Below are positions 17,477-38,613 of a DNA stretch of 64,000 nt, piece after piece (the first letter of the stretch is position 1; each line of letters begins with the position of its first letter). The notes beneath the pieces are model-generated. The model worked only from the letters and a program-made list of their open reading frames with translations. It had not been told where the DNA came from and ran no database searches. Position numbers and translations under genes: made by a program. Source of the DNA: Haliovirga abyssi (GTDB taxonomy: Bacteria; Fusobacteriota; Fusobacteriia; Fusobacteriales; Haliovirgaceae); assembly GCF_030295325.1 (NCBI RefSeq), contig NZ_AP027059.1, positions 1,048,637 through 1,112,636 of the forward strand, given 5' to 3'.

Positions 17477-17539
17477 AATTAGGCGAAAAGAGCTCATTTC
17501 CAATGTGGTTAAGTATTGGATTTTGGTTTAGTGGCTTAT

Positions 17540-17645
17540 AGACCTCATCCCCCAACCCCTTCTCCTAACTTAGGAGAAGGGGAGTTAAATAACAAAAAAG
17601 TCCTCTCCTAAGTTAGGAGAGGATTTAGGTGATGCCTGAAAATGG
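17540..17645 (+). repeat. 106-nt GC-rich structured element, copy 1 (candidate ncRNA / REP-like element)
   Basis: Perfect 13-bp hairpin CCCCTTCTCCTAA-c-TTAGGAGAAGGGG, second 9-bp hairpin CCTCTCCTAAgTTAGGAGAGG, outer AGACCTCATC...GGTGATGCCT complementarity; ~85% identical to 59207-59312. Confidence 0.75.
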
Positions 17646-17662
17646 ATAGAATTATATTAAAG

Positions 17663-17707
17663 AAGTGTTTTTGAAGAAATTATTTTCTTTGGAAACACTT
17701 TTTTTAA
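17663..17707 (+). terminator. rho-independent terminator (17-bp interrupted stem, 4-nt loop, T7 run)
   Basis: AAGTGTTTTTGAAGAAA-ttat-TTTCTTTGGAAACACTT then TTTTTTT. Confidence 0.7.
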
Positions 17708-17750
17708 TACAATTTTTTATCATGTGGTAAAAAAGTTTTTATTATTACTG

Positions 17751-17779
17751 TTGACAATTCGTTCAAAAAGAGGTACTAT
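17751..17779 (+). promoter_or_regulatory. sigma70-type promoter (TTGACA-17-TACTAT) for the sigma54-type activator gene
   Basis: Consensus -35 and near-consensus -10 with 17-nt spacing, 32 nt upstream of ATG 17811. Confidence 0.55.
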
Positions 17780-17810
17780 TTTAACATACCAAAATAGGGC
17801 GGTGATCGAA

Positions 17811-19178: not shown

Positions 19179-19342
19179 GTGCATAAAGGTATGCTGTTTT
19201 GGGATGGTATCTATATAAAGAATGTTTTATTTCAAATTAATAATTGATATTTATGAAATAGAATTGCTATAAGTAAGTTATTAAGAAAGTAAGTAATTAA
19301 TTTAAATATAGTAAAAAATAAAATTAGGGAGGTTAAAAAAAT

Positions 19343-19825
19343 ATGATATTTTTATATATTTTGACTTTAGTTGCAGTGTTAATATCATTTTTAATTAATG
19401 CAAAGAAAACAAAGAAAGCTGTAATTATGGGAGTGAAAAAATTATGGAAAATAACTCCAGCATTTATTGCGATTATTATAGTGGTATCAATTGTTTTATA
19501 TTTAGTACCAAAGGAAATGATCGTTCATTATCTTGGTGGATCAAATACATATTTTGGAATGATTTTGGCTTTAATAATTGGGACAATAACAGTTTTACCA
19601 GGTCCTATAGTATATCCTCTTTGTGGAATACTTCTTGAGCAAGGAGTGTCATATGGTGTTATTGCTGCATTTTCAGTTTCTCTTATGCTTGTAGGAGTAT
19701 TATCGTTTCCGGTTGAAAGTGCTTATTTTGGTAAAAAATTTGCTGTTTTAAGAAATTTAACAAGTCTTTTTATTGCTGTTGTTGTAGCGTTGGTATTTGC
19801 ATTTTTAAATGGGAGGTTATCATGA
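19343..19825 (+). CDS. small integral membrane protein (4-5 TM), possible half of a split permease
   Basis: 160 aa hydrophobic, SD GGGAGG 19326-19331. Confidence 0.6.
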   Translation: MIFLYILTLVAVLISFLINAKKTKKAVIMGVKKLWKITPAFIAIIIVVSIVLYLVPKEMIVHYLGGSNTYFGMILALIIGTITVLPGPIVYPLCGILLEQGVSYGVIAAFSVSLMLVGVLSFPVESAYFGKKFAVLRNLTSLFIAVVVALVFAFLNGRLS

Positions 19826-20358
19826 AAAAATCAAAAAATAATAAGATTAAAAAAATTATTTTTGCTCTGTTTTTTATTTTTATATCTTTTTCTTATTTTA
19901 TAAAATTTACTCCAGGTGTTTTAGTAGGTAAAAATTTTATTGATTTTGCACTTCAAATGATTGAAATGTTACCACCGATATTTATATTAGTTGGGCTTTT
20001 TGATGTATGGGTAAAAAAAGAAACTATAGAAAAACATTTAGGTAAAGATGGTGGGTTTAAAAGCTATATTTTGGTTTTTATATTGGCAGCTCCAATGGCT
20101 GGAGGGCTTCTAGCAGCGTTTCCAATTGCATATGCTATCTATAAAAAAGGAGCAAGGCTTACAGTTATGCTTGTTTTTTTAGGTGCTGTTGGGATAGGAC
20201 GTGTTCCTATGGTTCTTTTTGAAGCTTCATTTTTGGGAATAAAGTTTAGTGCTATTCGTTTAATTGTATCTATTCCTCTTGTAATTATTACAGGAGTTAT
20301 GTTAGGAAGAGCATTGGAAAAAAGAGAATATAAATTACCTGAAAATAATCAAAATTAA
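19822..20358 (+). CDS. small integral membrane protein (about 5 TM), possible second half of split permease
   Basis: 178 aa, ATGA-coupled to preceding gene. Confidence 0.6.
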   Translation: MKKSKNNKIKKIIFALFFIFISFSYFIKFTPGVLVGKNFIDFALQMIEMLPPIFILVGLFDVWVKKETIEKHLGKDGGFKSYILVFILAAPMAGGLLAAFPIAYAIYKKGARLTVMLVFLGAVGIGRVPMVLFEASFLGIKFSAIRLIVSIPLVIITGVMLGRALEKREYKLPENNQN

Positions 20359-20414
20359 TATAAGTTAATATTTTTGAAACAAATTTGCTTATATTAATAT
20401 AGAGGGTGGTGGAA

Positions 20415-20780
20415 ATGAGAAATAGACATAGATGTGGGATGAGAATGAGTGCAAATAAATATTTGATGATGAAAGATTATGAAACTGCATATAATTTATA
20501 TAAGAATATGATTGATGAAAATGGAACCGTTAATGATTATTTAAAATATATATTTATTCTTGTTATGTTAAATAGAAGTTATGAAGCTGTAGAAATCGTA
20601 AATAAAATATTGCCATCTGCTATAAAATGTAAAGGATATGGGCTATTAAAAGAATTAATAAAAGATAATATTGATATAATTAGAGATAGAGGAGATATTA
20701 TAGGAGAAAAAATATTTAAACTTATTTTAGGAGATGGAAAAGATGGAAGTAACAGTTTTGATGGAAAACCTTGTATATAA
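20415..20780 (+). CDS. hypothetical small helical protein
   Basis: 121 aa ORF, ATG 20415 after AGAGGGTGG; no recognisable family. Confidence 0.4.
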   Translation: MRNRHRCGMRMSANKYLMMKDYETAYNLYKNMIDENGTVNDYLKYIFILVMLNRSYEAVEIVNKILPSAIKCKGYGLLKELIKDNIDIIRDRGDIIGEKIFKLILGDGKDGSNSFDGKPCI

Positions 20781-21567
20781 ACAAGGTTTAAAAAGTGAAC
20801 ATGGGTTATCTTTTTTATTAAAATCAGATGATTTGAAAATAATTTTTGATACAGGGCAAACAGGAGATTTTATATGTAACGCTATTGCATTAGGAGAAAA
20901 TTTAAAAAATGTTGATTATGTAGTTTTAAGTCATGGTCATTATGATCATACAGGTGGATTAAAAAGATTTTTAGATATAAATAAAACTGCAAAAATAATT
21001 ATGAAAAAAGAGGCGTTAGAAGAAAAATATTCGAATTCAACTGGGAAAATAAGACCAATAGGATTTGAATTAAAAGATAGTTATATGAATTATGATAATG
21101 AATTTATATTTGTAGATGGTTTTTATGATATTAATAAAAATATTAGAGTAATTGGAGATATAAAAAAATATACTGATTATGAAGATGATGAAAAAAAACT
21201 GTTTATAAAAAAAGATGAAGAATTTATAAAAGATAGTTTTAAAGATGAACTATTTTTAGTTGAAAAAAATGATAATAATAAAAAAATAGACATTATAACA
21301 GGATGTTCTCATAATGGGATTATAAATATTATAAAAACTGCAAAATATAATTTTGAGGATTATAAAATAAATTCAGTTATTGGAGGAACACATTTAAAAG
21401 GAAAATCAAGCGATAGAATAGAAAAAACTATAAAAGCATTAGAAAAATTAGAAATAAATAAAATTGGAGTTAATCATTGCACAGGTATTGATAGTTATAC
21501 AATTTTAAAATCAAAATTAGGCGATAATATTTTTTACGCATATACAGGATTAAAAATAAATTTATAG
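20743..21567 (+). CDS. MBL-fold metallo-hydrolase
   Basis: HGHYDHTGG (HxHxDH) metallo-beta-lactamase motif; ATG 20743 preferred over 20734 on SD spacing. Confidence 0.8.
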
Positions 21568-21577
21568 GAGGATTAAA

Positions 21578-22813
21578 ATGGCAGAACAACAAGTAAATAA
21601 TGATCAAGCAATGCAAGATATGAGATTAAAAGCAAATGTAGAAAAAATCAAACATAAAATTGTGGTAATGAGTGGAAAAGGTGGAGTTGGAAAATCTACT
21701 GTTGCTACAAATATAGCTTATGGATTAGCATTAGAAGGGAAAAAAGTTGGGCTTTTAGATGCAGATGTACATGGACCAAATATTCCATTAATGTTAGGTA
21801 TTGAAGGAAAAAAGATTGCTAATTTAGCAGAGCCATATCAAGTACATGAAAATTTAAAAGTTGTTTCTTTGAGCTTTTATGTGGGAAGTTCTGATGATCC
21901 GATTATTTGGAGAGGTCCTGCAAAAACAGGAGCAATAAAACAACTTTTAGCTGATGTAAATTGGGGCGACTTAGATTATATGGTAGTTGATTTGCCACCA
22001 GGAACAGGAGATGAACCATTAACAATAGCTCAAAATATTGGAAAAGTAGATGGAACTGTAATAGTAACAACACCACAAAATGTAGCATTACTTGATTCAA
22101 GAAAGTCAGTGAAATTTTCAAAATTATTAAATATGCCTATACTTGGTATAGTAGAAAATATGAGCGGATTTATTTGCCCTCATTGTGGAGAAAGAGTAGA
22201 TATATTTAAATCTGGTGGAGGAGAAGCTGCTGCAAAAGAGTTAGGTGTGAATTTCTTAGGGAAAATACCAATGGATCCAGCTATTGTTGAAGCAGGAGAT
22301 AGTGGGAAACCGTTTATCTATTTTAATAACGGAGGAATTGCAGCTGGTATATTTACAGGAATTGTAGATGAATTAATAACTAAATCTGAAGGAAAAACAA
22401 CTGAAAAGAAAGAAGAAGAAAAAACAGGAAATAGTGGAGGAGAAAAAATTATGAGAATAGCATTTCCAACAAATGATAGAGTTAATGTAGAAGAACATTT
22501 TGGACATTGTAAAGAGTTTGCTATATTTGAGGTAGAAGCTGGGAAAATATTAAAAACTGAATTTATAACACCACCACCACACGAACCTGGAGTGCTACCT
22601 AAATTTTTACATGAAGAGAAAGTTAATATAATAATTACTGGAGGAATGGGTCAAAGGGCTGTAGATATATTTCATTCTAATGAGATTGATGTTATATTGG
22701 GAGCAAGTGGAAGTATGGAAGATGTGTTAAATGAATATTTAGGCGGAGATCTATATTCTAAAGGATCGGCATGTAATCATGATCATGATGATGACCACGA
22801 ATGTAATCACTAA
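21578..22813 (+). CDS. Mrp/NBP35 (ApbC-like) Fe-S cluster carrier ATPase fused to a C-terminal NifX/NifB-like (FeMo-cofactor-binding fold) domain with His/Cys-rich tail
   Basis: N-terminal [16 protein letters not shown]-loop and CPHCG motif of Mrp; C-terminal [10 protein letters not shown]...[13 protein letters not shown]; tail [13 protein letters not shown]. Confidence 0.8.
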
Positions 22814-22833
22814 AATTAAGTTTAACTTATATG

Positions 22834-22851
22834 AAACCGAGAAATCGGTTT
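22834..22851 (+). terminator. short hairpin AAACCGA-gaaa-TCGGTTT after the Mrp-NifX gene (weak terminator)
   Basis: 7-bp stem followed by TATATAAG. Confidence 0.35.
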
Positions 22852-22853
22852 TA

Positions 22854-22898
22854 TATAAGTGCTGAAATTTTGCAAATCAAAATATTAGCACTTATAAT
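22854..22898 (+). promoter_or_regulatory. promoter TTGCAA-17-TATAAT (22870-22898) embedded in a 10-bp inverted repeat TATAAGTGCT...AGCACTTATA (candidate operator)
   Basis: Left arm 22854-22863, right arm 22887-22896 overlapping the -10 hexamer 22893-22898. Confidence 0.5.
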
Positions 22899-22951
22899 GA
22901 AATATTTGCCTGGTTTTAAGGGCAAAAACTATGAAATGGAGGTTGATTAAA

Positions 22952-23299
22952 ATGAGAGGAAACAGAAGAGGACCATTAAATGAAGGTCCAATGACAGGAA
23001 GAGGATTAGGATTATGTAGCGGGAGTGAAACTACTGGATATGTAAAAGAAGGCGGTAGATTGGGATTAGGATTAGGTAGAAGAAATGGAGCAGGAATGGT
23101 TGGAGGCTTTGGAAGAAGAGGCGGAAACGTTGGAGCAGGAAGAGGCTTTGGATTTAGAGGCAGAGGATATGGATATGAAAATTATTCTGCACCTGCTATT
23201 AATGAAACAGAATATTTAAAAGAAGAAGAAAAAGTTTTAAGAGCAAACTTAGATGCTATTTCTAAAAGATTGGAAGAATTAGAAAAAAATAGTAAATAA
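22952..23299 (+). CDS. DUF5320-like Gly/Arg-repeat protein with C-terminal coiled coil
   Basis: N-terminus MRGNRRGPLNEGPMTGRGLGLCSGS followed by GRG/GLG repeats; SD GGAGG 22937-22941 to ATG 22952; ORF-track start 22931 rejected. Confidence 0.65.
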   Translation: MRGNRRGPLNEGPMTGRGLGLCSGSETTGYVKEGGRLGLGLGRRNGAGMVGGFGRRGGNVGAGRGFGFRGRGYGYENYSAPAINETEYLKEEEKVLRANLDAISKRLEELEKNSK

Positions 23300-23333
23300 T
23301 TTAACTATGAAAATCAGTAAAACGTACCAGAAG

Positions 23334-23369
23334 ATTGGTGTGTTTGATATGAGATTCAAACACACCAAT
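23334..23369 (+). terminator. perfect 14-bp stem hairpin ATTGGTGTGTTTGA-tatgagat-TCAAACACACCAAT (terminator/attenuator or operator upstream of the TDT transporter)
   Basis: Read directly; 35 nt after the DUF5320 stop, 43 nt before the next ATG. Confidence 0.5.
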
Positions 23370-23411
23370 TATATTAATTAAAATGAAATATTAATTTGGA
23401 GGAAAAATAAA

Positions 23412-24482
23412 ATGGAGAAAAAAGTAATAAAGAATTTTAGCCCTTCTTGGTTTGCGGTGGTTATGAGTACAGGAATTATACCAATTGATTTATGTTTGGC
23501 AAAATCAAGCGTCCCTTTTTATTCTACTTTAGCAAAAATATTTTTTGTTTTATCAACATTAGTATTTGTTGCATTATTTATACCATGGATTATTAGATTT
23601 TTTACAAATATGGATGAGATAAAAAAAGATTTAAGACATCCTGTATTGGGGAGCTTTTTCCCAACAGTTGCAATAGCAACTTTGATATTAGCAATTGATT
23701 TTTTAAGAATAGGAGAATCCTTTTTAGGAAAAGAGTTAGCTTTAAAAATAGCATTAATTCTTTTTGTAATAGGTACAATCGGTGTATTTTTATTTGGATT
23801 TATTATATTACCACTAACTTATATTAGTGATAATATAAATTTACAACATGCTAATTTTGGCTGGTTTATACCGCCGGTTTCTCATCTTATAATTGCTGTT
23901 GTAGGGCTTGATTTAGTTCCACATTATAAAAATACAGTTTTAGGAAATAATATTTTTATAATATCTTTAATTGGAGCAGGAATAGGTATGTTTTTATATT
24001 TATTTGTGGGTGCAATTGTATATCATAGATATATTTATCATGAAATGCCAATGCCTAAATTGGCCTCAACATTTTTTATAGGCATGTCTCCAACAGCTAT
24101 TTTAACAATTATATTGGTAAAATTAGTTGCAGCTTCTAAATTTGTAAGTTATAATATAAATGTTGGAGCAATAAGTTCAGTTTCTAAAGTTTTGGGTATT
24201 GCATTTTGGGGATTTAGTATATGGTGGTTTATTATTTCGTTGATAGTTTTAGTTCATCATATTAAATCAAAACAATTACCTTATGCTTTAAGTTGGTGGG
24301 CTTTTATATTTCCAATTGGTGCTTTAGGTGTGTCTACTGGAGCGATTAATAAATTGGTGCATTTCAAATATTTTATATATTTTTTAAATGGGATAGATAT
24401 TGTACTGTTAGCAATGTGGCTATTTATAGGAATAAAAACCATAAAAGGCATAGTCAATGGAACTGTTTTTGAGGCGCATTAA
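23412..24482 (+). CDS. TDT-family (TehA/Mae1-like) C4-dicarboxylate/malic acid transporter
   Basis: 356 aa, about 10 TM; N-terminal SWFAVVMSTGII motif resembling the TDT signature. Confidence 0.6.
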   Translation: MEKKVIKNFSPSWFAVVMSTGIIPIDLCLAKSSVPFYSTLAKIFFVLSTLVFVALFIPWIIRFFTNMDEIKKDLRHPVLGSFFPTVAIATLILAIDFLRIGESFLGKELALKIALILFVIGTIGVFLFGFIILPLTYISDNINLQHANFGWFIPPVSHLIIAVVGLDLVPHYKNTVLGNNIFIISLIGAGIGMFLYLFVGAIVYHRYIYHEMPMPKLASTFFIGMSPTAILTIILVKLVAASKFVSYNINVGAISSVSKVLGIAFWGFSIWWFIISLIVLVHHIKSKQLPYALSWWAFIFPIGALGVSTGAINKLVHFKYFIYFLNGIDIVLLAMWLFIGIKTIKGIVNGTVFEAH

Positions 24483-24503
24483 ATAATAAAATAGGAGTGG
24501 ATT

Positions 24504-25379
24504 ATGAAAACATATGTAGAATGTATTCCGTGTATAATTAATCAAGGTATAAAAATAGGTAGAAGATTAGATATTAAAGATGAAAAAATAGAAGAGATGG
24601 TAAGAGAATTAATGGACCATTTAAAAGGAGAAAATTTTAATAAAACTCCGGCAGAATTAGCAAAATATTCATATAAGATAATAAACAAGTATATGATGAC
24701 AAATGACCCATATAAAGAGATAAAAAAATATTATAATGAAAGTATGTTAAAATTAGTTCCAGAAATAAAAAATATAATTAATAACTCTGGTAATAGATTT
24801 GAAATAGCTATGAAAATAGCTGTACTAGGAAATATAATAGATTTTGGTTCAAAGCATAAATTTTCTGAAAATGATATAATAAAAAAAGTTAGAGATATAG
24901 GAAATAGCTATTTTGCGATTGATGATAGTAAAAAGTTATATGATAAATTAAGAGTATCAAAAACTTTACTATATATTGGAGATAACTGTGGAGAAATAGT
25001 TTTTGATAAAATATTTATCGAATATATAAAATTTTCTTTTCCTAATTTAAAAATTTATTATGGAGTAAGAGGTGAACCTGTAATTAATGATGTTACTATA
25101 GTAGATGCAAAAGATGTAAATATGGAAGAAGTAGCAGAAGTTATAGACAATGGAGATAATTCTCCAGGAACAGTATTAAATAATATATCTGGAAAATTTA
25201 AAGATTTATTATTTAATTCAGATTTAGTAATTTCAAAAGGACAAGGCAATTATGAAACTTTAAATGAAATTAATAGAGATGATGTTTTTCTATTATTTAT
25301 GGCAAAATGTGATGTTGTGTCAAAAGAATTAGGGGTAAAGAATATGAGCTTTATTTGTAAAAAAATAGATAATATTTAA
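24504..25379 (+). CDS. DUF89/ARMT1-like (damage-control phosphatase family) protein
   Basis: 291 aa; N-terminal ECIPCIINQG Cys motif typical of DUF89 subfamily. Confidence 0.5.
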   Translation: MKTYVECIPCIINQGIKIGRRLDIKDEKIEEMVRELMDHLKGENFNKTPAELAKYSYKIINKYMMTNDPYKEIKKYYNESMLKLVPEIKNIINNSGNRFEIAMKIAVLGNIIDFGSKHKFSENDIIKKVRDIGNSYFAIDDSKKLYDKLRVSKTLLYIGDNCGEIVFDKIFIEYIKFSFPNLKIYYGVRGEPVINDVTIVDAKDVNMEEVAEVIDNGDNSPGTVLNNISGKFKDLLFNSDLVISKGQGNYETLNEINRDDVFLLFMAKCDVVSKELGVKNMSFICKKIDNI

Positions 25380-25454
25380 AAATAAAAAGCTTTTAATATA
25401 TATTAATATATGCTAATATATACGCATATAAAATAAAAATAGGAGGATTTAAAA

Positions 25455-25829
25455 ATGAGAATAGCAATAACAGCAAAAGGTGAAGGATTAAAATCAATGG
25501 TAGATGACAGATTTGGAAGATGTGAGAATTTTGTAATATTTGATACAGAAACAAAAGAAACAACTACAGTAGATAACGATGCAAAAAATGAAAGTGGAGG
25601 AGCAGGAGGAAAAGCTGTAAGAATTTTATCTTTAAATAAGGTGGATGTAGTTATAGCTCCTGAATTGGGACCAAAAGCAACTGAAGGATTAAAAGCTTTT
25701 GAAATAAAAGCCTATAAAAAAGGAAATAGTGCTACAGTAGAGGAAGCTATTAATAATTATAATGAAAATAAACTTGAAGAAATTAAATTTTCTACAGTAG
25801 AAGAACATAGTGGACTTAGAAAAGCTTAA
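25455..25829 (+). CDS. NifX/NifB-like (dinitrogenase FeMo-cofactor-binding fold) domain protein
   Basis: 124 aa; MRIAITAKGEGL...DDRFGRCENFVIFDTE core motif of the family. Confidence 0.75.
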   Translation: MRIAITAKGEGLKSMVDDRFGRCENFVIFDTETKETTTVDNDAKNESGGAGGKAVRILSLNKVDVVIAPELGPKATEGLKAFEIKAYKKGNSATVEEAINNYNENKLEEIKFSTVEEHSGLRKA

Positions 25830-25948
25830 AAGAAAGAATAATTGATAATAGAAAATTAATTATGAGGAAAATGAGAAGATAGAAATATAAAATTAGGTGC
25901 TTATAATTTTATATTTAATTAAGGGTCAGATAAACGAGTGCTTACTAT

Positions 25949-25991
25949 TTTCCTATAAAAAAATATCGTTTATGTATTTTTTTATAGGAAA
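25949..25991. promoter_or_regulatory. perfect 16-bp inverted repeat TTTCCTATAAAAAAAT-(11)-ATTTTTTTATAGGAAA upstream of the first MinD-ferredoxin ATPase gene
   Basis: Arms 25949-25964 and 25976-25991; 57 nt upstream of ATG 26048. Confidence 0.5.
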
Positions 25992-26047
25992 CCTTTAGTA
26001 AGCTATTGTTTTATGAGCGCTAAATTATAAAAGAGAGGTAGAAAAAA

Positions 26048-26887
26048 ATGAGAATAGCTGTTTTAAGTGGAAAAGGTGGAACAGGGAAAACAACAATATC
26101 TACTAATTTATCTATAAATATAGAAAATTCTATGTTGATTGATACTGATGTAGAGGAACCAAATTCACATATTTTTTTGAAACCAAATATAACTGAAACA
26201 AAAAGTGTGAAAGTTGAGTACCCTGTTGTAGATAATGAAAAATGTACTTTATGTGGAAAATGTGGAGATTTTTGTAATTTTAATGCAATAATACCAGCTA
26301 AAAATACAGTTTTAGTATTTCAAGAGAGTTGTCATTCATGTGGTGGATGCAAAATGGTTTGTCCAACTGGGGCGATAACATATTCTAAAAGAGAAATTGG
26401 TAAAATATATGAAGGCGATACTAAATTTGGTATTAAGATGAAATATGGAGAGCTAAATTTAGGTGAAATGTCAGGTGTAAAAATTATAGAAGAATTAAAA
26501 GAGATTACTAAAAATGAAGATATTGTAATAATTGATTCTCCACCTGGTACTTCTTGTTCAACTGTTGCTGCAGTAGAAGATGTTGATTATGCAATAGTGG
26601 TTACAGAGCCTACTCCTTTTGGTGTAAGTGATATGAAAATGGTAGTAGAAATGTTAAGAGAAATGAAAATTCCATTTAGTGTATTTATTAATAAAGCTGG
26701 TTTAGGTGATAATGAAGTTTATGAATATTGTGAAGATGAAAAAATTAAAATTATAGGCGAGGTACTTTTTGATAAGAAAATTGCTGAATATTATTCTGAA
26801 GGGATTCCGTTTTCAACAAAAATTCCTAAATATAAGAAGTTGTTTAATGATATTTTTGAAGAAATTTATATGGAATTTAGAAAATAA
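26048..26887 (+). CDS. MinD/ParA-superfamily P-loop ATPase with inserted 2x[4Fe-4S] ferredoxin domain (COG1149-like)
   Basis: MRIAVLSGKGGTGKTT deviant Walker A; CTLCGKCGDFC and CHSCGGCKMVCP ferredoxin motifs. Confidence 0.85.
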   Translation: MRIAVLSGKGGTGKTTISTNLSINIENSMLIDTDVEEPNSHIFLKPNITETKSVKVEYPVVDNEKCTLCGKCGDFCNFNAIIPAKNTVLVFQESCHSCGGCKMVCPTGAITYSKREIGKIYEGDTKFGIKMKYGELNLGEMSGVKIIEELKEITKNEDIVIIDSPPGTSCSTVAAVEDVDYAIVVTEPTPFGVSDMKMVVEMLREMKIPFSVFINKAGLGDNEVYEYCEDEKIKIIGEVLFDKKIAEYYSEGIPFSTKIPKYKKLFNDIFEEIYMEFRK

Positions 26888-27171
26888 TGGATATTTATAA
26901 AAAATATTTAGAAGCTATAAAAATACTTGAATTACCTTTGAAGTTTAATTTGAAAATTTTAAAGAAAAGATATAAAGATATGATTAAAATGTATCATCCT
27001 GATTTGAATAATGATGAAGAGATGGAATTGAAAATTCATGAAATAAAAGAAGCTTATGAAATTCTTTTGAGTTATTTTGAAAATTATAAATTAAATTTTG
27101 AAAAAGATAATTTTAAACTTTCTCCAAAAGAATTATATGAGAAAAAATTAATGAATGATTGGAAAATTTAA
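26887..27171 (+). CDS. stand-alone J-domain (DnaJ-like) protein
   Basis: 94 aa; J-domain helix II/III with invariant HPD (KMYHPDLNNDEE); ATGA-coupled to upstream ATPase. Confidence 0.7.
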   Translation: MDIYKKYLEAIKILELPLKFNLKILKKRYKDMIKMYHPDLNNDEEMELKIHEIKEAYEILLSYFENYKLNFEKDNFKLSPKELYEKKLMNDWKI

Positions 27172-27236
27172 AAATATTGTTTTTGAATTATTTTTTTAAA
27201 AACAGAAATGAGAAAATATAAAGGAAGGTTTTTAAA

Positions 27237-28097
27237 ATGGATATTAATGAAATAGTTATAATTTCAGGAAAAGGTGGGACAGGAAAGACAACATTAACAG
27301 CATCGTTAATACCTTATTTTGAAGAGTTAGTTGTTGGAGATTGTGATGTTGACGCTCCTGATTTAAAAATTCTTTTTGAAGGTGATAATATTACTAAAGA
27401 AGGATTTGTAGGTACTAAAAAAGCTATTATTAATGAAGAAAAATGTATAAAATGTGGAAAATGTTATAGAGCTTGTACTTTTGGAGCAATAACAAAAGAG
27501 ATAAAAATGAACACTCCTAAATGTGAAGGTTGTGGAGTTTGTGAATATGTTTGCCCAGTTGGAGCAATAGAATTAAAAGATGCTGTAGTAGGGAATTTGT
27601 TTGTTTCGAATACCAATTATGGAAAAATGGTTCATGCGAGATTAATACCTGGAGAGGAAACATCGGGAAAATTAGTTTCTGCAGTTAGAAAAAGAGCTAA
27701 AAAAATAGCTTTAGAAGAAAATAAAAAAAATATTATAATAGATGGAGCTCCTGGTGTGGCTTGTAACGTAATTTCATCAATAACAGGAGCAAAAAAAGTA
27801 GTAATTGTAACTGAACCAACTTTTTCAGGATTGCATGATTTAGAAAGAGTATATGAAGTGACTCAAAAATTTAGATTGCCAGTTTTAGTTGTTATTAATA
27901 AGTATGATCTGTCTATAGAAATGAGTAATAAAATAGAAGAATTTTGTAAAGAAAAGAATATAGAGTTAGGATTAAAAATACCTTTTAATAAAAAAATGGT
28001 AAAAGCGATTGTAGATAAAAAAATTCCTTCATTAGCTGAAAAAGAATTTTTTGACAGTTTCGGATTTGGAGAGTTTATTGAGAAGTTGAAAAAATAG
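27237..28097 (+). CDS. MinD/ParA-superfamily P-loop ATPase with inserted 2x[4Fe-4S] ferredoxin domain (second paralog)
   Basis: IISGKGGTGKTT; CIKCGKCYRAC and CEGCGVCEYVCP. Confidence 0.85.
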   Translation: MDINEIVIISGKGGTGKTTLTASLIPYFEELVVGDCDVDAPDLKILFEGDNITKEGFVGTKKAIINEEKCIKCGKCYRACTFGAITKEIKMNTPKCEGCGVCEYVCPVGAIELKDAVVGNLFVSNTNYGKMVHARLIPGEETSGKLVSAVRKRAKKIALEENKKNIIIDGAPGVACNVISSITGAKKVVIVTEPTFSGLHDLERVYEVTQKFRLPVLVVINKYDLSIEMSNKIEEFCKEKNIELGLKIPFNKKMVKAIVDKKIPSLAEKEFFDSFGFGEFIEKLKK

Positions 28098-28114
28098 AAA
28101 AAGGAGTGAAAAAA

Positions 28115-28414
28115 ATGCCTTGGATAAAAACAAATGAATGTAAAGGATGTGCTAAATGCATATCAGTATGTCCAGTTAATGCAATTTCAATGATAGATTC
28201 AAAAGCTGTAATAGATCAAAAAAAATGTATTAATTGTGGTGCTTGTTTAACTGTGTGCCCATTTGATATTATTAGACCAAATTCTGAAAATCCTGAATTG
28301 AAAGGTTTAGGAAATGGAAGAGGAGGCGGTCGTGGAAGAACTGGTGGCGGATTAGGCGGACAGGGTTCTGGACTTGGAAACGGCGGCGGAAGAGGTATGG
28401 GACGTGGCAGATAA
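28115..28414 (+). CDS. 2x[4Fe-4S] ferredoxin with C-terminal Gly/Arg-rich low-complexity tail
   Basis: CKGCAKCISVCP and CINCGACLTVCP; tail GNGRGGGRGRTGGGLGGQGSGLGNGGGRGMGRGR; SD AAGGAG 28101-28106, ATG 28115. Confidence 0.8.
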   Translation: MPWIKTNECKGCAKCISVCPVNAISMIDSKAVIDQKKCINCGACLTVCPFDIIRPNSENPELKGLGNGRGGGRGRTGGGLGGQGSGLGNGGGRGMGRGR

Positions 28415-29627
28415 AAAATCAATTAGATTAACTTATATTAGCTTTGGATGGCATAGTTTTTTTCTTGCGCTTACTATGTCAATGATAGATTTTAATACTG
28501 TTTTTCCATCATTGATTTCAGAATTATCTAAATCAAAACTTATATTTGGAGCATTATATGCAATTTTGCTAGGTGCTCCAAATATTTTCAATATGATTTT
28601 TAGTCATCATATGAGAAAACATCATTATAAAAAGAAATATTTGCTTTTAGGAATTTATATGAGAGGATTTTCCTTTTTAGGGATGTCTTTATCAGTAATA
28701 TTTTTTGCGAAAAGTAATCCAATGTTAGCTATTACTCTTTTTTTCTTGTGGATATTTATATTTTCAGCAAGTGCAGGATTTGCAGGAATAGCTTATTCTA
28801 ATTTAATAGCAAAACTATTATCTACGCATGAAAGAGGTCAATTTTATGCAACAAAACAATTTGTAGGAAGTACAGCAAGTATTATTGGTGGAATAGTTAT
28901 AGGAAAAATATTTAAAAATAGTGGTTTTGCGTATCCTTATAATTATGGGATAGCTTTATTCATAGGATTTGCGGGATTAGTAATTGCTTCTTTGGGGTTT
29001 TATGCTATAAAAGAACCGTCTTCAGAAATTGAAACAGATGATTATAATTTTTTAGAATTTTTAAAGCAAGTACCAGAGATTTTAAGAAATAATAGAAAAT
29101 TTTTAAATTTTATTATAGTAGAAAATATAAGTAGTTTCTCTTTGATGATATTACCATTTTATATGGTATTTGCTAAAGATAAATTAGGAGTTGGAAAAAA
29201 TTATATAGGAAAATATTTAATGTTTCAAATTTCAGGAATGGTAATTTCAAATTTGATTTGGGGATATTTCATTAAAAGAAAAGGTACAAAAAAGATGACT
29301 GGAGATTGTATTATTATAGGAGCAATATTACCAATTTTAGCAATTATATTATCAAATTTTGGAGCAAATATTTATTCATTTTTATTTTTCATAATAGGTT
29401 TCGTAATGAGTGGAAGAAGAATAACTTTTGAGCCATATTTATTAGATATAATTCCTTCAAATAGAAGAGTTACATTTTTAGGAATTAGAGGAACATTAAA
29501 TATTTTAATGATAATATTACCTTTAATTGGAGCAACTGTAATAAAATTCTTTGGATATTATACAGCATTTTTAATAGTATCTGGAGTTATGTTTTTTGCA
29601 TATTATTTATTGAGAAAGGAGAATTAA
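28374..29627 (+). CDS. MFS transporter (12 TM); true start probably downstream (GTG 28404) of the ORF-track ATG
   Basis: Hydrophobicity pattern and length; 5' end overlaps the ferredoxin tail in another frame. Confidence 0.7.
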   Translation: METAAEEVWDVADKKSIRLTYISFGWHSFFLALTMSMIDFNTVFPSLISELSKSKLIFGALYAILLGAPNIFNMIFSHHMRKHHYKKKYLLLGIYMRGFSFLGMSLSVIFFAKSNPMLAITLFFLWIFIFSASAGFAGIAYSNLIAKLLSTHERGQFYATKQFVGSTASIIGGIVIGKIFKNSGFAYPYNYGIALFIGFAGLVIASLGFYAIKEPSSEIETDDYNFLEFLKQVPEILRNNRKFLNFIIVENISSFSLMILPFYMVFAKDKLGVGKNYIGKYLMFQISGMVISNLIWGYFIKRKGTKKMTGDCIIIGAILPILAIILSNFGANIYSFLFFIIGFVMSGRRITFEPYLLDIIPSNRRVTFLGIRGTLNILMIILPLIGATVIKFFGYYTAFLIVSGVMFFAYYLLRKEN

Positions 29628-29628
29628 T

Positions 29629-30033
29629 ATGAATGAATTAATAATAGCGTGTGCTACAAATAATGGAGAAGAATTTGTAAATGATCATTTTGGTAGTGCA
29701 AATTATTTTGATATTTATAAAATGTCAAAAGAGAGCATTGAAAAAATAGATAGAGTAGATAATACAAGTGAAGAGGAAAAAGAGGATGATGGAATACATG
29801 GAGATCCAAATAAAGCCAAAGGAATATCTGGAATATTAAAAAAGAAAGATGTTCAAGTTGTAGTTGGTTATAAAATGGGACCAAATATCATTAGAATGAA
29901 GAAAAAATTTGTGCCTGTGATCGTTAGAAATATAAATATAAAAAATAGTTTAGAAATTGTAAAAAATAATTTTGATAAAATAGTTGAAGAATTAAATAAT
30001 GGTGAAAATAGAAAACATATAGTATTAGAATAG
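29629..30033 (+). CDS. NifX/NifB-like (FeMo-cofactor-binding fold) domain protein, third copy
   Basis: 134 aa; DHFGSANYFDIYK core motif. Confidence 0.7.
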   Translation: MNELIIACATNNGEEFVNDHFGSANYFDIYKMSKESIEKIDRVDNTSEEEKEDDGIHGDPNKAKGISGILKKKDVQVVVGYKMGPNIIRMKKKFVPVIVRNINIKNSLEIVKNNFDKIVEELNNGENRKHIVLE

Positions 30034-30057
30034 GACCTTTAGGGGTCCTATTTTTTT
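30031..30057 (+). terminator. rho-independent terminator TAGGACC-tttag-GGGTCCTA + T7
   Basis: Hairpin overlapping the stop codon of the NifX-like gene, followed by TTTTTTT. Confidence 0.8.
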
Positions 30058-30069
30058 AGGATAAAAAAA

Positions 30070-30098
30070 TTGATTTTTTATCCATGGTGTGATATAAT
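30070..30098 (+). promoter_or_regulatory. strong sigma70 promoter with extended -10 (TTGATT-17-TGaTATAAT) driving the NfeD/flotillin/giant ATPase operon through a ~220-nt leader
   Basis: -35 30070-30075, TG 30090-30091, -10 30093-30098. Confidence 0.65.
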
Positions 30099-30319
30099 GC
30101 AATGCATATTAACATTGGTATGAAATGGTTGAAAGAATATCTACTTAAGAATAAATTATAAATTTATTCAGGAAGTAAGTAATGCTATTTTTTTAACATT
30201 ATTTAGTAACAAATATCCAAACATTCTAATTTTTTTATAATCTTAATTTAATATAAAATTCTATTGATTAAAAAAATTAGGTGAAATAAAATATTAATTT
30301 TTAGAAAGGAGGTAAATAA

Positions 30320-30964
30320 ATGAACTATATAAAATACGCTTTTACTGGTATTAATATATTGCCATCAATATTTTTACTTATTATAATTTTTTATTGGTTA
30401 ATGACTATACTAGGATTTTTTTCAATTGATTCGGGACTGGATATTAATACAGATGCAAATTCTGATTTAGAGCTTAATTCTGAATTAGAAGGTGATATTA
30501 ATTTAGGAAATCTTTCAATAGCTAGTAAAATTTTTGAATTTTCAAATATGGGAGCAATGCCATTTATGGTCTATTCAACTTTCTATGTTATTGTCTTGTG
30601 GACATTATCAATGTTGACTTATTACATAAAAATATCGCAAAATATATTTATATCTTTAATAATTTTTATTATCAATTTCATCTTAACTTTTTTCTTAACT
30701 AAAATAATAACTCTTCCCTTAGTTAAATTTTTTAAATCTTTTAATATTGATGAAAAAAATAAGATAATTGGCTCTATATGTACATTAAAATCAACTATTG
30801 AAGGAGAACATATAGGATTAGCTGAAGTAGAAAATGATAAATATCCAATAGTAATAAATGTAAAAAGCCCAAATAAGAAAATAGAAAAAGGAGAACAGGC
30901 TATTGTAATATCAGAAGAAAATAACAATAATTTATATATAGTAGAAAAAAATAATTTTTTTTAG
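30320..30964 (+). CDS. NfeD-like (YqiJ/YuaF-type) membrane protein with C-terminal OB-fold-like domain
   Basis: 214 aa; N-terminal TM helices, acidic linker, C-terminal beta-rich soluble domain; immediately upstream of a flotillin gene. Confidence 0.6.
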   Translation: MNYIKYAFTGINILPSIFLLIIIFYWLMTILGFFSIDSGLDINTDANSDLELNSELEGDINLGNLSIASKIFEFSNMGAMPFMVYSTFYVIVLWTLSMLTYYIKISQNIFISLIIFIINFILTFFLTKIITLPLVKFFKSFNIDEKNKIIGSICTLKSTIEGEHIGLAEVENDKYPIVINVKSPNKKIEKGEQAIVISEENNNNLYIVEKNNFF

Positions 30965-30982
30965 AAAGGAGAATGGTTAGAA

Positions 30983-33019
30983 ATGATTGAGTTTATTTTG
31001 TATGTGGTAGGTATTGTAGTTTTTTTGTTATTCATTGGAATACCAATGATTTTAAGTATGTTTTATAAGAAGGTAGTTCAAGGGAAAACCATAGTTAGAA
31101 ATGGAATAGGAGGTTCAAAAGTTTCTTTTTCTGGAATATGGGTAATTCCTATATTGCATAAATTTGAAAAAATGGACATTTGTGTTAAAAGAGTAGAAAT
31201 TGCTAGAGAAGGTAAAGAGGGTTTGATTTGCAAGGATAATTTAAGGGCAGACATAAGAGTAGCTTTTTTTGTAAAAGTAAATCATACTGAAGAGGATGTT
31301 TTGAGGGTTGCTAAATCTTTAGGAACAGAAAAAGCGTCTGATACTGTAACTTTAATGGAGTTTTTTGATGCTAAATTTTCAGAAGCATTAAAAACAGTGG
31401 GTAAAAAATTTGATTTTGTGCAATTATATACTGAAAGAGATAAATTTAAAGATGAAATTTTACAAGTTATAGGTACTGACTTAAATGGATATATTTTGGA
31501 AGATGCTGCAATTGATTATTTGGAACAAACAGATATTAATTTATTAAATCCTGATAATGTGTTAGATGCAGAAGGGATTAAAAAAATAACAGATTTAACA
31601 GCGAAACAACTTGTAATGGCAAATCAAATAAAAAGAGACAAAGAAAAAACTATTGTAGAACAAGATGTAACTGCAAGAGAGGCTATATTAGAATTAGAAA
31701 AACAAAAATCTGAAGCAGAAGAAAAACAAAATAGAGAAATAGAAAATATTAAATCAAGAGAAAATGCTCAAATAAAAATAATTCAAGAAGAGGAAAAATT
31801 AAAATCAGAAAATGCAAGAATTAAAGTAGAGGAAGAATTAATGATTGCAGAAGAAAATAAAAATAGACAAATTATAATAGCACAAAAATCAAAAGAAGCT
31901 ACAGAAGCTGTAGAAACAGAAAGAGTTGAGAAACAAAGATTATTAGAAGCTACAGAAAAAGAAAAATTAGTTTCTTTAGCTCAAATTGAAAAAGATAAAA
32001 AGATAGAGACTGAAAATAAAAATATTAAAGAGATAATAAAAGATAGAGTTATAGTTGAAAAAAGTGTAGTAGAAGAAGAAGAAAAAATAAAGGATACTAA
32101 AGAACTAGCTGAAGCTAAAAGAAAAAAAGGTGTTAGCATTACTGCAGCAGAAGCTGATGCAGAGGTTCAAGGCATAGAAAAAGTAAAATCAGCAGAAGCA
32201 GAAAAAGAAAGTGCTACAATTTTAGCAGAAAAAGAAATTATAGTTGCAGATACAGAACTAAAAACGTCACATAAAAAAGCTGAAGCTACTAAAATATTAG
32301 CAGATGCTAAATCAGAAGAAGCAGCAATAGTAGGAATATCAGAAGCAAGAGTATTAAAAGCAAAAGCGGAAGCATATACAGCTGAAGGGCAATCAAAAGC
32401 TACAGTTATAAAATTAGAAGCTGAAGCTACAGCAAAATCGATAGAATTAAAAGGATTAGCTGAAGCTAAAACTACAAAAGAAAAAGCATTAGCTGAAGCA
32501 GAAGGGATAACTAAAAAAGCTGAAGCAATGAAAAAACTTGATTCTGTTGGAAAAGAACATGAAGAATTTAAATTAAAACTTAATAAGGAAAAAGAGGTAG
32601 AACTTGCTGAAATAAATATTCAAAAAGATGTTGCTGTATCACAAGCGGAAGTTGTAAAAGAAGGACTTAAAAATTCTAATATTGATATAGTTGGAGGAGA
32701 TACTATATTCTTTGATAAATTAGTAAAATCAATTACTTTAGGAAAACAAGTTGATAGAGTGATAGATAATTCGGATGTTTTAAAAAATATAAACGATACT
32801 TTTTTTGATGGAGATGCTGAAAATTTTAAAAAACAATTAAAATCATTTGTTTCTAATTTTAATTTAAATACAGAAGATGTTAAGAATCTTACTATATCAA
32901 GCGCTATATCTAAAATGATGAAAAATTCTCCAAATAAAAATGATTTTTTTAATGGTATTTTAGATAAAGTTAATAAAATAGGAATTGGAGATAAACTTGT
33001 CTCAACAATAATGGATTAG
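30983..33019 (+). CDS. flotillin-like SPFH/band-7 protein (YqiK/FloT family) with long Ala/Glu/Lys-rich coiled coil
   Basis: 678 aa; N-terminal TM, SPFH core (ICVKRVEIAREGKEGLICKDNLRADIRVAFFVKV), then ~350 aa EA/KA repeats. Confidence 0.85.
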   Translation: MIEFILYVVGIVVFLLFIGIPMILSMFYKKVVQGKTIVRNGIGGSKVSFSGIWVIPILHKFEKMDICVKRVEIAREGKEGLICKDNLRADIRVAFFVKVNHTEEDVLRVAKSLGTEKASDTVTLMEFFDAKFSEALKTVGKKFDFVQLYTERDKFKDEILQVIGTDLNGYILEDAAIDYLEQTDINLLNPDNVLDAEGIKKITDLTAKQLVMANQIKRDKEKTIVEQDVTAREAILELEKQKSEAEEKQNREIENIKSRENAQIKIIQEEEKLKSENARIKVEEELMIAEENKNRQIIIAQKSKEATEAVETERVEKQRLLEATEKEKLVSLAQIEKDKKIETENKNIKEIIKDRVIVEKSVVEEEEKIKDTKELAEAKRKKGVSITAAEADAEVQGIEKVKSAEAEKESATILAEKEIIVADTELKTSHKKAEATKILADAKSEEAAIVGISEARVLKAKAEAYTAEGQSKATVIKLEAEATAKSIELKGLAEAKTTKEKALAEAEGITKKAEAMKKLDSVGKEHEEFKLKLNKEKEVELAEINIQKDVAVSQAEVVKEGLKNSNIDIVGGDTIFFDKLVKSITLGKQVDRVIDNSDVLKNINDTFFDGDAENFKKQLKSFVSNFNLNTEDVKNLTISSAISKMMKNSPNKNDFFNGILDKVNKIGIGDKLVSTIMD

Positions 33020-33029
33020 GGTGATTAAA

Positions 33030-38227: not shown

Positions 38228-38295
38228 TTGACATTTTAAAATCTATTGACATATTACTTCAATTATGATATACTTTGATTATCAAAGTAAAAGAT
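38228..38295 (+). promoter_or_regulatory. feo promoter: tandem TTGACA hexamers (38228, 38246), 17-nt spacer, TGaTATACT -10 (38266-38274), then near-palindrome CTTTGATTATCAAAG (Fur-box-like) at +1
   Basis: Hexamers and spacing read from sequence; TGATTATCA resembles the Fur-box GATAATGATAATCATTATC hexamer repeat. Confidence 0.55.
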
Positions 38296-38316
38296 ATCAG
38301 AATGGAGGAATATAAA

Positions 38317-38613
38317 ATGACAATATATCTAAACGAGCTGTTACCGGGTCAGTCTGCTTTCATAGTTGGAATTGAAGAAAATTCAACTTTAAGACAAAGA
38401 TTAATGGAACTTGGAGTTAGAGAAGGAAAGCAAGTTTTTATGAGAAGAAGAGCTCCGTTAGGAGATCCTATGGAAGTTAATGTTATGGGAACAAATCTAT
38501 CTATTAGAAAATCAGAAGCTAGATATGTAATGATAGATAAAGTGGTAACTTGCCCTGGAAATGGAAAAATGAGAGGGTTAGGCAAAGGATTAGGAAGGAG
38601 ACATAATAAATGA
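38317..38613 (+). CDS. feoA: ferrous iron transport protein A with Gly/Lys/Arg-rich C-terminal extension
   Basis: FeoA SH3-like motif LGVREGKQVFMRRRAPLGDPMEV; SD GGAGG 38304-38308; ATGA-coupled to feoB. Confidence 0.85.
   Translation: MTIYLNELLPGQSAFIVGIEENSTLRQRLMELGVREGKQVFMRRRAPLGDPMEVNVMGTNLSIRKSEARYVMIDKVVTCPGNGKMRGLGKGLGRRHNK

Follow-up and report, generated by a model that had tools for sequence, protein, structure and literature searches.

A probable orange protein (ORP) system with distinctive, in part conserved accessory genes in the fusobacterium Haliovirga abyssi

Core genes of the cluster

We analysed a 64-kb window (the whole stretch of DNA that was searched, to which all coordinates refer) from Haliovirga abyssi, a member of the Fusobacteriota, and within it a run of eleven + strand open reading frames (ORFs) at 21578-30033 that an original prediction had described as an Fe-S and NifX-like island with no assigned role. 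All eleven ORFs were found where they had been placed and every domain call was reproduced by Pfam; the ensemble does however have a described counterpart, as its core is that of the orange protein (ORP) cluster of Desulfovibrio vulgaris (PMC6345978, PMC8359166). The region 17808-30058 is very likely the H. abyssi version of this ORP system of strict anaerobes. The genes that make up its core are given below, MinD-Fd denoting the MinD-type ATPases with inserted ferredoxin motifs.

21578-22813, + strand: MrpORP (Orp9 homolog), an Mrp/NBP35 ATPase with a Di-Nase (NifX-like) domain (Pfam ParA/Mrp 7.6e-97, Nitro_FeMo-Co 8.3e-21)
25455-25829, + strand: single-domain Di-Nase protein, orange-protein-like (Orp8-like), here NifXa (Pfam Nitro_FeMo-Co 5.4e-23)
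26048-26887, + strand: MinD-type ATPase with inserted 2x[4Fe-4S] motifs, MinD-Fd copy 1 (Orp3/Orp4-like; Pfam CbiA/ParA, Fer4)
27237-28097, + strand: MinD-type ATPase with 2x[4Fe-4S] motifs, MinD-Fd copy 2 (Orp3/Orp4-like; Pfam CbiA/ParA, Fer4)
29629-30033, + strand: divergent Di-Nase (NifX-like) protein with an acidic insert, here NifXb (Pfam Nitro_FeMo-Co 2.3e-11)

The product of 21578-22813 scored 498 bits against the NCBIfam model NF041136, 'iron-sulfur cluster carrier protein MrpORP', for which the equivalog cutoff is 450. It includes GKGGVGKST (the deviant Walker motif) and CPHC (CXXC), and its Di-Nase part has the HFGHC and TPPPHXPGXXP motifs and a C-terminal CNHDH...HECNH, matching the motif list published for MrpORP (PMC6345978); in the CXHFGHCE motif the first Cys is replaced by Val. 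The best PDB matches were 2PH1, Cfd1 (6G2G) and 8ZKC, at around 1e-60. The deviant Walker motif and the CXXC bridging-cluster motif are shared with the Mrp/NBP35/ApbC and Cfd1-Nbp35 carriers, which differ in having no C-terminal Di-Nase domain, and the linkage of the H. abyssi gene points to a dedicated set of partners and not to Fe-S delivery in general.

Among the single-domain proteins NifXa matched 1RDU (1.5e-18), the ORP of D. gigas (2WFB, 2.2e-15) and MTH1175 (1e-12) in the PDB, and also TM1290. A PDB sequence search with NifXb gave no match; it is 66% identical to an ortholog in the related locus L083 and 36% identical to an ORF in the related locus L088. The two MinD-Fd ATPases are paralogs with 32% identity, both with SGKGGTGKTT and each with two CX2CX2CX3C motifs, which read CTLCGKCGDFC and CHSCGGCKMVCP in copy 1 and CIKCGKCYRAC and CEGCGVCEYVCP in copy 2. 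Against the MinD models TIGR01968 and TIGR01969 these proteins scored 40-56 bits, where the cutoffs exceed 200.

As all three small domains fall in Pfam Nitro_FeMo-Co, we considered whether the genes serve the maturation of a nitrogenase-type cofactor (NifB-co/FeMo-co) for an enzyme encoded elsewhere in the genome. The scores of the NifX-like domains against the curated NifX model TIGR02663 (21.8, 26.8 and 28.2 bits) are far below its cutoff of 112, structurally these domains come closest to ORP, TM1290 and MTH1175 and not to NifX or NafY, and the module occurs in many lineages not known as diazotrophs. The prediction had noted that no nitrogenase is encoded here and this holds for the whole window, as a Pfam scan of all + strand ORFs of 90 aa or more revealed no nitrogenase or other nif genes and none for molybdenum cofactor (Moco) biosynthesis, hydrogenase or carbon monoxide dehydrogenase. 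With scores so far short of the NifX cutoff and no nif genes in the window we rejected this explanation, which we regard as extremely improbable.

In D. vulgaris Hildenborough the ORP proteins comprise Orp3 (DVU2103), Orp4 (DVU2104), Orp5 (DVU2105), the product of orp7, Orp8 (DVU2108) and Orp9 (DVU2109), the last being MrpORP (PMC6345978, PMC8359166). Orp3 and Orp4 are MinD-like with two [4Fe-4S] motifs each, and Orp5 and Orp8 are Di-Nase/NifX-like (PMC6345978). Orp8 is the orange protein itself, which in its D. gigas/D. vulgaris form carries a non-covalent [S2MoS2CuS2MoS2] cluster, and in Desulfovibrio the CXXC motif of MrpORP holds a bridging [4Fe-4S] cluster, which the protein transfers to Orp3/Orp4 (PMC6345978). 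The orp genes are not mentioned in a D. vulgaris RB-TnSeq paper. The H. abyssi locus likewise encodes a two-domain MrpORP with matching motifs, a pair of paralogous MinD-type ATPases with two [4Fe-4S] motifs each, several Di-Nase proteins of one domain, among them a homolog of the orange protein, and a linked sigma-54 activator with a cysteine-containing PAS domain, and both systems are restricted to anaerobes. The NF041136 score above cutoff, the MrpORP motifs, the 2WFB match, the MinD-Fd paralog pair and the OrpR motif described below together allow the cluster to be assigned to the ORP family with high confidence. The prediction had also read the genes as a dedicated metallocluster route, and this stands in so far as they are an Fe-S assembly or trafficking set unrelated to nitrogenase, its client not established, although the gene set on which it was based was incomplete.

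An OrpR-like regulator and further genes upstream

The conserved unit starts near 17808 and not at 21578, as an OrpR-type activator is encoded just upstream of MrpORP. The earlier bounds of 21578-30033 missed this regulator and three further conserved genes located between it and MrpORP.

17808-19178, + strand: OrpR-like sigma-54 enhancer-binding protein (PAS-AAA+-HTH_8; Pfam Sigma54_activat 1.1e-71, PAS_9, HTH_8)
19343-19825 and 19822-20358, + strand: two half-size ArsP_1-family permease genes (PF03773, 1.5e-08 and 8.1e-13) overlapping by 4 nt
20415-20780, + strand: small conserved protein, 121 aa, no known domain; an ORF at the same position in L088 has 37% identity (E 5e-24)
20734-21567, + strand: metallo-beta-lactamase (MBL)-fold protein of COG1237 type (Pfam Lactamase_B 1.6e-16; PDB 2P4Z, TM1679, 2.1e-56)

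OrpR (DVU2106) of D. vulgaris has a three-cysteine motif in its PAS domain that binds a redox-sensing [4Fe-4S] cluster, and it activates orp transcription at low redox potential. The H. abyssi regulator shares its PAS-AAA+-HTH_8 architecture and GAFTGA motif, and its gene likewise adjoins orp genes. Its PAS domain contains the motif CKNIFKSNKCSKGC, that is C-X8-C-X3-C, which has the spacing of C52/C61/C65 of OrpR at nearly the same position in the domain. This motif was found in 113 of 120 regulator homologs among the matches listed; many activators of this type are about 795 aa long and contain a tandem of two such PAS domains. Two residues past the first Cys, at the position of a candidate fourth ligand, OrpR has a conserved Asp/Glu and the H. 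abyssi protein an Asn (CKN...); Asp or Glu is kept there in the regulators adjoining orp modules in relatives. The closest homolog of the regulator (58% identity) heads a syntenic cluster in the metagenome contigs L088/L089.

A well-aligned PAS domain with the same Cys motif was also found in the enhancer-binding proteins beside the orp modules of L040, L056, L057 and L069, whose contigs are labelled Ignavibacteriales, NC10, Desulfobacula and delta proteobacterium. In the published view OrpR is restricted to Deltaproteobacteria, whereas by these sequence criteria OrpR-type Cys-PAS activators are also encoded in Fusobacteriota and, beside orp modules, in Ignavibacteriales and NC10 contigs.

Both ArsP_1 half-genes match the same half of the Pfam profile, and the half-permease is weakly similar to the SO_0444 Cu/Zn efflux family. 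A pair split in the same way lies near the orp cluster of an Ilyobacter metagenome-assembled genome (L002, 18478-19500), and an unsplit ArsP_1 gene near that of L085. The recurrence of the split pair in Ilyobacter argues for a putative heterodimeric design and not a broken gene. The small ORF has almost no further relatives among 1.84 billion representative proteins and wherever found is located between the regulator and the MBL gene; its AF2 model (single-sequence, all-helical) had a pLDDT of 43.8 and was unusable and not used.

Hairpins and promoter-like elements

A number of sequence elements were identified in the intergenic regions of the cluster, in several cases with a counterpart in L088.

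19169-19206, + strand: block shared with L088 just past the regulator stop codon, with a near-miss -24/-12 element cGGCATgtagGTGCat
20374-20389, + strand: promoter-like motif TTGAAA-N5-TTGCT, 25 nt 5' of the ATG of the small ORF, with motif, spacing and position as in L088
22828-22857 and 22854-22896, + strand: two consecutive hairpins past MrpORP (dG -15.1, z -7.8; dG -17.9, z -6.2)
23333-23370, + strand: perfect 15-bp stem-loop after the DUF5320 gene (dG -22.0, z -7.9), terminator- or attenuator-like
25934-26009, + strand: long A/T-rich hairpin between the NifX and MinD-Fd genes (dG -29.1, z -8.3)
30032-30058, + strand: terminator-like hairpin (dG -10.2) with a U-run (UUUUUUU) that closes the unit

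Three sites that had been proposed as operators (22854-22896, 23333-23370 and 25934-26009) do contain strong inverted repeats, for which however the simplest reading is that of intercistronic RNA hairpins or terminators. The hairpin at 22854-22896 could still be a candidate operator since it overlaps a good sigma-70-like promoter (TTGCAA-17-TATAAT, 22870-22898). A hairpin is likewise present directly 3' of MrpORP in L088, and the inverted repeat ATAAGTGCT...AGCACTTAT is absent from L088. The block just 3' of the regulator stop codon reads CTGTTTTGGGrTG in both the window and L088 and is non-coding, and the TTGAAA-N5-TTGCT motif has no GG and is not a canonical sigma-54 element. No riboswitch was found in an Rfam scan of 17000-31000 (E<=1), where the sole match was a spurious miRNA on a hairpin.

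Conservation of the cluster across anaerobes

In order to compare the cluster with its relatives an alignment of the MinD-Fd proteins was scanned against one genome per species, which gave 80 loci (designated L with a number) spanning Fusobacteriota, Spirochaetes, Clostridia, Izemoplasma, Dehalococcoidia, Desulfobacterales, Thermotogae, Omnitrophota, Caldisericota, NC10, Bathyarchaeia and others, all of them lineages generally known as anaerobic. Families were counted by comparing the window proteins with the ORFs of each locus followed by clustering, and the counts are lower bounds as many contigs are short. The adjacent MinD-Fd pair was present in all 80 loci and a NifX-like gene in 75, in most loci directly 5' of the pair. 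An Mrp-type ATPase with the deviant Walker A motif was found in at least 35 of the 80, DUF5320 in 29, the MBL gene in 20, DUF89 in 4-5 and the OrpR-like regulator in 4-6. Other neighbours recur elsewhere and are not in the window, namely DUF134 (26 loci), IscU/NifU_N (20, always co-directional), radical SAM (16), AsnC (16), Fur (9), AhpC (7) and DUF364/DUF4213 (5).

Closer relatives (L081, L083/L084, L085, L086 and L088) were examined one by one beyond the 80-locus scan, and the MBL gene was found in L081, L083, L085, L086 and L088 also. In L088 the order is regulator, small ORF, MBL, MrpORP, DUF5320, SBF-family transporter, DUF89, a C_GCAxxG protein, two NifX genes and two MinD-Fd genes. Compared with this arrangement the window has the split ArsP_1 permease inserted after the regulator, a TDT transporter in place of SBF, a J-domain gene between the two ATPase genes, and a ferredoxin-MFS-NifX tail module past the ATPases. 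L085 has Mrp, DUF1858, NifX, DUF5320, DUF89, NifX, the MinD-Fd pair and NifU_N, with ArsR, ArsP_1 and MBL nearby, while L083/L084 has MrpORP, SBF, NifX, MinD-Fd, a J-domain protein, MinD-Fd, MFS, NifX and MBL. Only in this one sister lineage (L083/L084) do genes for the J-domain protein, MFS and the third NifX recur, and Hypnocyclicus (L081) is without them. The eleven genes are thus a universal core with a sub-lineage shell and local additions and not one co-conserved set; DUF5320, DUF89, MBL and the transporter slot recur inside a sub-lineage. Co-conservation across the 80 loci was seen for the core only, and its lack for the full set is a point that the prediction itself had given as grounds for refutation.

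The prediction had listed the genes as a contiguous + strand run. All credible genes of the window are on the + strand, so that co-directionality is useless as evidence for an operon here, and the window is a single long leading-strand stretch, with GC skew strongly positive (0.25-0.51 per 2 kb) and AT skew positive across 1-64000. A horizontally acquired island was rejected on the basis of uniform composition (27% GC overall, range 0.21-0.32). It is then conceivable, though somewhat unlikely, that the eleven genes do not form a single functional unit and consist of a conserved core (MBL, MrpORP, DUF5320, DUF89, NifX and the MinD-Fd pair) with passengers (the ArsP pair, TDT and possibly MFS), their co-operonic look coming from leading-strand bias. 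The TDT gene has no counterpart in related loci, the ArsP pair breaks the conserved regulator-to-small-ORF junction and strong hairpins cut the region into at least four segments, all of which fit such a view; inside the segments, however, intergenic gaps are 0-75 nt with some overlapping start and stop codons, four relatives, L081, L083 and L088 among them, have a transporter in a comparable slot, the MFS gene has its close counterpart at the same place in L083, and ArsP_1 genes lie near the orp clusters of L002 and L085. For TDT and the ArsP pair a role as passengers is plausible.

The arrangement also differs from that in D. vulgaris, where two divergent three-gene operons flank the regulator, as the window has one co-directional array of about 16 genes. 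Beyond the Desulfovibrio ORP set it includes the conserved small ORF, MBL, DUF5320, DUF89 and a transporter slot, and additions of its own lineage, namely the J-domain protein, a Gly/Arg-tailed ferredoxin, MFS and the split ArsP permease; the host itself is a member of the Fusobacteriota, unlike that of the Desulfovibrio system.

Accessory genes and the transporter slot

Interspersed with the core are the following genes.

22931-23299, + strand: DUF5320 protein, a cationic Gly/Arg/aromatic region with a C-terminal coiled-coil helix (Pfam 1.5e-17)
23412-24482, + strand: TDT/SLAC1-family anion transporter (Pfam 2.6e-54)
24504-25379, + strand: DUF89/ARMT1-like metal-dependent phosphatase (Pfam 4.7e-70; PDB 2G8L 9.9e-44)
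26887-27171, + strand: J-domain-only protein, 94 aa, with HPD motif (Pfam DnaJ 1.3e-10); its start codon overlaps the preceding stop
28106-28414, + strand: 2x[4Fe-4S] ferredoxin with a Gly/Arg tail (Pfam Fer4 2.8e-15); likely start ATG at 28115
28374-29627, + strand: MFS transporter (Pfam MFS_1 7.4e-20); true start probably near 28400

DUF89 is found at the same place, before the NifX and MinD-Fd pair, in L002, L085, L086 and L088. The MFS gene shares 85% identity with its counterpart in L083 and in both lies between MinD-Fd copy 2 and NifXb. An ortholog of the J-domain gene (57% identity), located through synteny, is present at the same place in L083/L084; no credible J-domain gene was detected in the 80 loci and the gene is absent from the examined loci other than L083/L084. 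As in the case of HscB/Jac1, an HPD J-domain protein is here encoded inside an Fe-S cluster-handling operon, and by analogy its placement suggests a possible Hsp70-assisted cluster release. The likeness is one of logic, with homology limited to the J domain, as the 94-residue protein is without the C-terminal IscU-binding domain of HscB and gives generic DnaJ matches and no match to the HscB model.

No credible counterpart of the TDT gene was found in the 80 loci or in the other related loci compared. In L088 an SBF-family transporter (7079-8077) occupies the same slot between DUF5320 and DUF89, and in L081 (8407-9396) and L083 (8087-9121), both without DUF5320 and DUF89, an SBF transporter lies between MrpORP and NifX. 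That the slot is filled by non-homologous carriers suggests that the flux of a small anion matters to the system.

Such carriers are also what would be expected if the cluster handles or detoxifies thiometallates (Mo/W, possibly Cu). In sulfidic cells molybdate and tungstate are converted to thiomolybdate and thiotungstate; the NifX-like proteins would then sequester Mo-Cu-S, the Gly/Arg proteins would bind anionic thiometallate, and the TDT/SBF, ArsP-like and MFS transporters would carry the oxyanion or products. The Mo-Cu-S cluster of the orange protein, of which NifXa is a homolog, is consistent with this, as are the non-orthologous anion-type carriers (TDT in the window, SBF in L081, L083 and L088) and the faint resemblance of the ArsP_1 half-permease to SO_0444. 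Against it, there are no mod, tup, Moco-biosynthesis or Mo/W-enzyme genes in the 64-kb window and no Moco riboswitch was found, and the recurrent neighbours in other loci are Fe-S genes (IscU, Fur) and not Mo genes. We therefore consider thiometallate handling unlikely.

Gly/Arg-rich proteins and similarity to IssA

In IssA of Pyrococcus furiosus an IPR003731 NifX-like domain precedes a cationic Gly/Arg/aromatic tail (70 aa with 15 Gly, 7 cationic and 14 aromatic residues, 1 Cys and an isoelectric point (pI) of 10.7) that has been proposed to wrap anionic thioferrate (PMC5524996). The window contains the same IPR003731 family together with cationic, disordered Gly/Arg/aromatic segments which, judged by the published composition, are similar in size, composition and pI. 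Residues 8-88 of the DUF5320 protein (81 aa) have 27 Gly, 13 cationic (Arg+Lys) and 7 aromatic residues and 1 Cys, with a pI of 11.4, and the ferredoxin tail (residues 62-102, 41 aa) has 21 Gly, 7 cationic (Arg+Lys) and no aromatic residues and no Cys, with a pI of 12.0; the ferredoxin homolog in L002 has no tail. In contrast to IssA, where domain and tail are in one polypeptide, they are on separate polypeptides in the window (DUF5320 and the ferredoxin tail), and the DUF5320 protein has a C-terminal coiled-coil helix in addition. The thioferrate storage by IssA is archaeal, and neither thioferrate nor such nanoparticles are known from bacteria.

The two elements are however joined in seven related loci, where we found ORFs that fuse a NifX-like domain to DUF5320, both domains scoring above their Pfam cutoffs.

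L065:8835-9446, L038:2024-2662, L028:4158-4742, L048:1926-2486 and L064:4330-5181: Nitro_FeMo-Co with DUF5320 (Pfam)
L014:12179-12772 and L023:17278-17874, both minus strand: Nitro_FeMo-Co with DUF5320 (Pfam)

The contigs belong to Chloroflexota/Dehalococcoidales, Acidobacteriota, Bathyarchaeia and Nitrososphaeria. These fusions would tie DUF5320 functionally to NifX-fold domains and appear to recreate an IssA-like architecture. Gly/Arg tails are also present on about 13 NifX-like ORFs of related loci, and Gly/Arg-rich ORFs are enriched beside the MinD-Fd pair (18/859 near ORFs against 3/561 far ORFs), with one near the pair in 29 of the 80 loci under a looser criterion.

Small ORFs were also seen directly 5' of the first MinD-Fd gene in L040 (9681-9989), L052 (9742-9990), L049 (9730-9996), L051 (5559-5846) and L054 (306-581), with a Gly/Arg-rich N-terminus and no Pfam family above cutoff. 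The two that were inspected, from L040 and L052, have a Cys-rich zinc-ribbon-like end (C.C..C...CPQCG).

Proposed function

Taken as a whole the observations are probably best explained by an ORP system that handles inorganic Fe-S; the specific mechanism by which it would store or traffic Fe-S is a possible one that we put forward tentatively. By analogy with the Desulfovibrio homologs MrpORP would use its CXXC motif to assemble a bridging [4Fe-4S] cluster, which it would hand to the two MinD-ferredoxin ATPases. The least certain step is that the module would store or move anionic inorganic iron-sulfide species and not serve one enzyme client. These species would be bound by the acidic NifX-like domains, with the cationic DUF5320 protein and ferredoxin tail acting in trans as the IssA tail does in cis, and the redox-active ATPases would load or release them. 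The J-domain protein may recruit DnaK in an HscB-like manner, and the transporters, DUF89 and MBL would be lineage-specific accessories. Storage or transport is suggested by the Gly/Arg-rich proteins, the NifX-DUF5320 fusions, the enrichment of Gly/Arg ORFs and the IscU and Fur neighbours.

Proteomics of Methanococcus voltae offers a hint of such a link. In pyrite-grown cells, which accumulate thioferrate-like particles, the IssA-like IPR003731 proteins Mvol_0689 and Mvol_0693 are up 2.3- to 5-fold and the FeS-motif 'CbiA-family' ATPases encoded between them, Mvol_0691 and Mvol_0692, rise too (PMC8516115). The last two are likened to MinD-Fd here by description, which tempers the comparison.

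Several further points weigh against the storage or trafficking of Fe-S by this cluster and its control by the adjoining regulator. The window NifX-like proteins, acidic with a pI of 5.0-6.0, lack a cationic tail of their own, the likeness to IssA is an analogy from composition and domain fusions with no measured ligand, and the mechanism so far gives no place to TDT, MFS, ArsP, DUF89 and MBL. What the orange protein contains when isolated is a Mo-Cu-S cluster and not Fe-S, and the physiological role of ORP is unsettled even in Desulfovibrio. With respect to regulation, ORP operons in Desulfovibrio are preceded by sigma-54 promoters with OrpR palindromes and none were detected here. All intergenic regions of the window were searched by consensus with mismatches, by a weighted scan and for GG-N9-11-GC; these regions contain no canonical GG-N10-GC promoter and no OrpR-type (GC-rich) palindrome, the only near-miss being cGGCATgtagGTGCat at 19169-19184 with a spacing one base short. 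The negative result is meaningful because the same scan recovered canonical sites upstream of orp genes in L040, L056, L057, L069 and L092, although none in L088. The link from the regulator at 17808-19178 to orp targets is accordingly only putative.

In Desulfovibrio the one in vivo effect reported for ORP is a change in cell morphology or division, and MrpORP is found at a pole of the cell, both of which also count against a role in Fe-S storage and would suit a spatial or cell-division device in which the MinD-like ATPases and MrpORP position cargo at the pole or septum and the Fe-S clusters are redox switches. D. vulgaris Hildenborough orp and OrpR mutants have morphological defects, the orp genes have been described as putatively involved in septum positioning, and MinD-like C-terminal amphipathic helices have been reported in Orp3/Orp4. 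We nevertheless judge such a device highly improbable, as minC, minE, fts and other division genes are neither linked in the window nor recurrent in the 80 loci, and the partners that are universally linked are NifX-fold cofactor-binding proteins and Fe-S biogenesis genes.

An extension of the Fe-S storage reading, which we think unlikely, is that ORP is a machine common to many bacteria and archaea by which inorganic, thioferrate-like iron-sulfide is stored and mobilised, with DUF5320 and the ferredoxin tail as free-standing equivalents of the IssA tail. The Gly/Arg segments would wrap around an anionic Fe-S polymer that the NifX-like domains hold. The polymer would be deposited or released by the action of the two redox-active MinD-type ATPases, and in this lineage the J-protein would couple release to DnaK.

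Other features of the window

Beyond the cluster the Pfam scan of the window found housekeeping genes, FeoAB (38275-40724) and a class I fumarase. FeoA and FeoB, a ferrous iron transporter encoded on the + strand, sit 8 kb downstream of the cluster. Between them and the cluster, at 30320-37952, are three co-directional genes for a 214-aa membrane protein, a 678-aa Glu/Lys-rich protein without a Pfam family and a 1643-aa DUF3686/DUF7902/AAA ATPase. A defence system was considered for these three genes and rejected, as there was no PADLOC match, and no NCBIfam match either.

Upstream, between thrC and the regulator, two copies of a palindromic G+C-rich element with the core CTCCTAAsTTAGGAG lie in 17555-17623, and a third copy of the core is found at 59229-59243, where the chance expectation is none. 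It looks like a REP-like intergenic repeat.

Implications

Strict anaerobes rely heavily on Fe-S enzymes, yet little is known about the way in which they store Fe-S and distribute it. Work on the ORP complex goes back to 2011 and has left its function unsettled. The H. abyssi cluster is a member of this described, functionally unsolved system in a new phylum, with distinct and partly conserved extra genes, so that what was first observed at the locus is confirmed and what was made of it is supported in part.

The finding extends the ORP module and an OrpR-type Fe-S redox sensor to the Fusobacteriota, and the comparison adds conserved members (MBL, DUF5320, DUF89, the transporter slot and the small ORF) to the description from Desulfovibrio. 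The NifX-DUF5320 fusions and the Gly/Arg-rich proteins provide a concrete hypothesis joining ORP to storage of the IssA type; if it proves wrong, the locus has still been re-annotated correctly as belonging to a known family. Should the thioferrate extension be true, DUF5320 would gain a function, ORP would be unified with IssA and the role of the orange protein complex would be explained.

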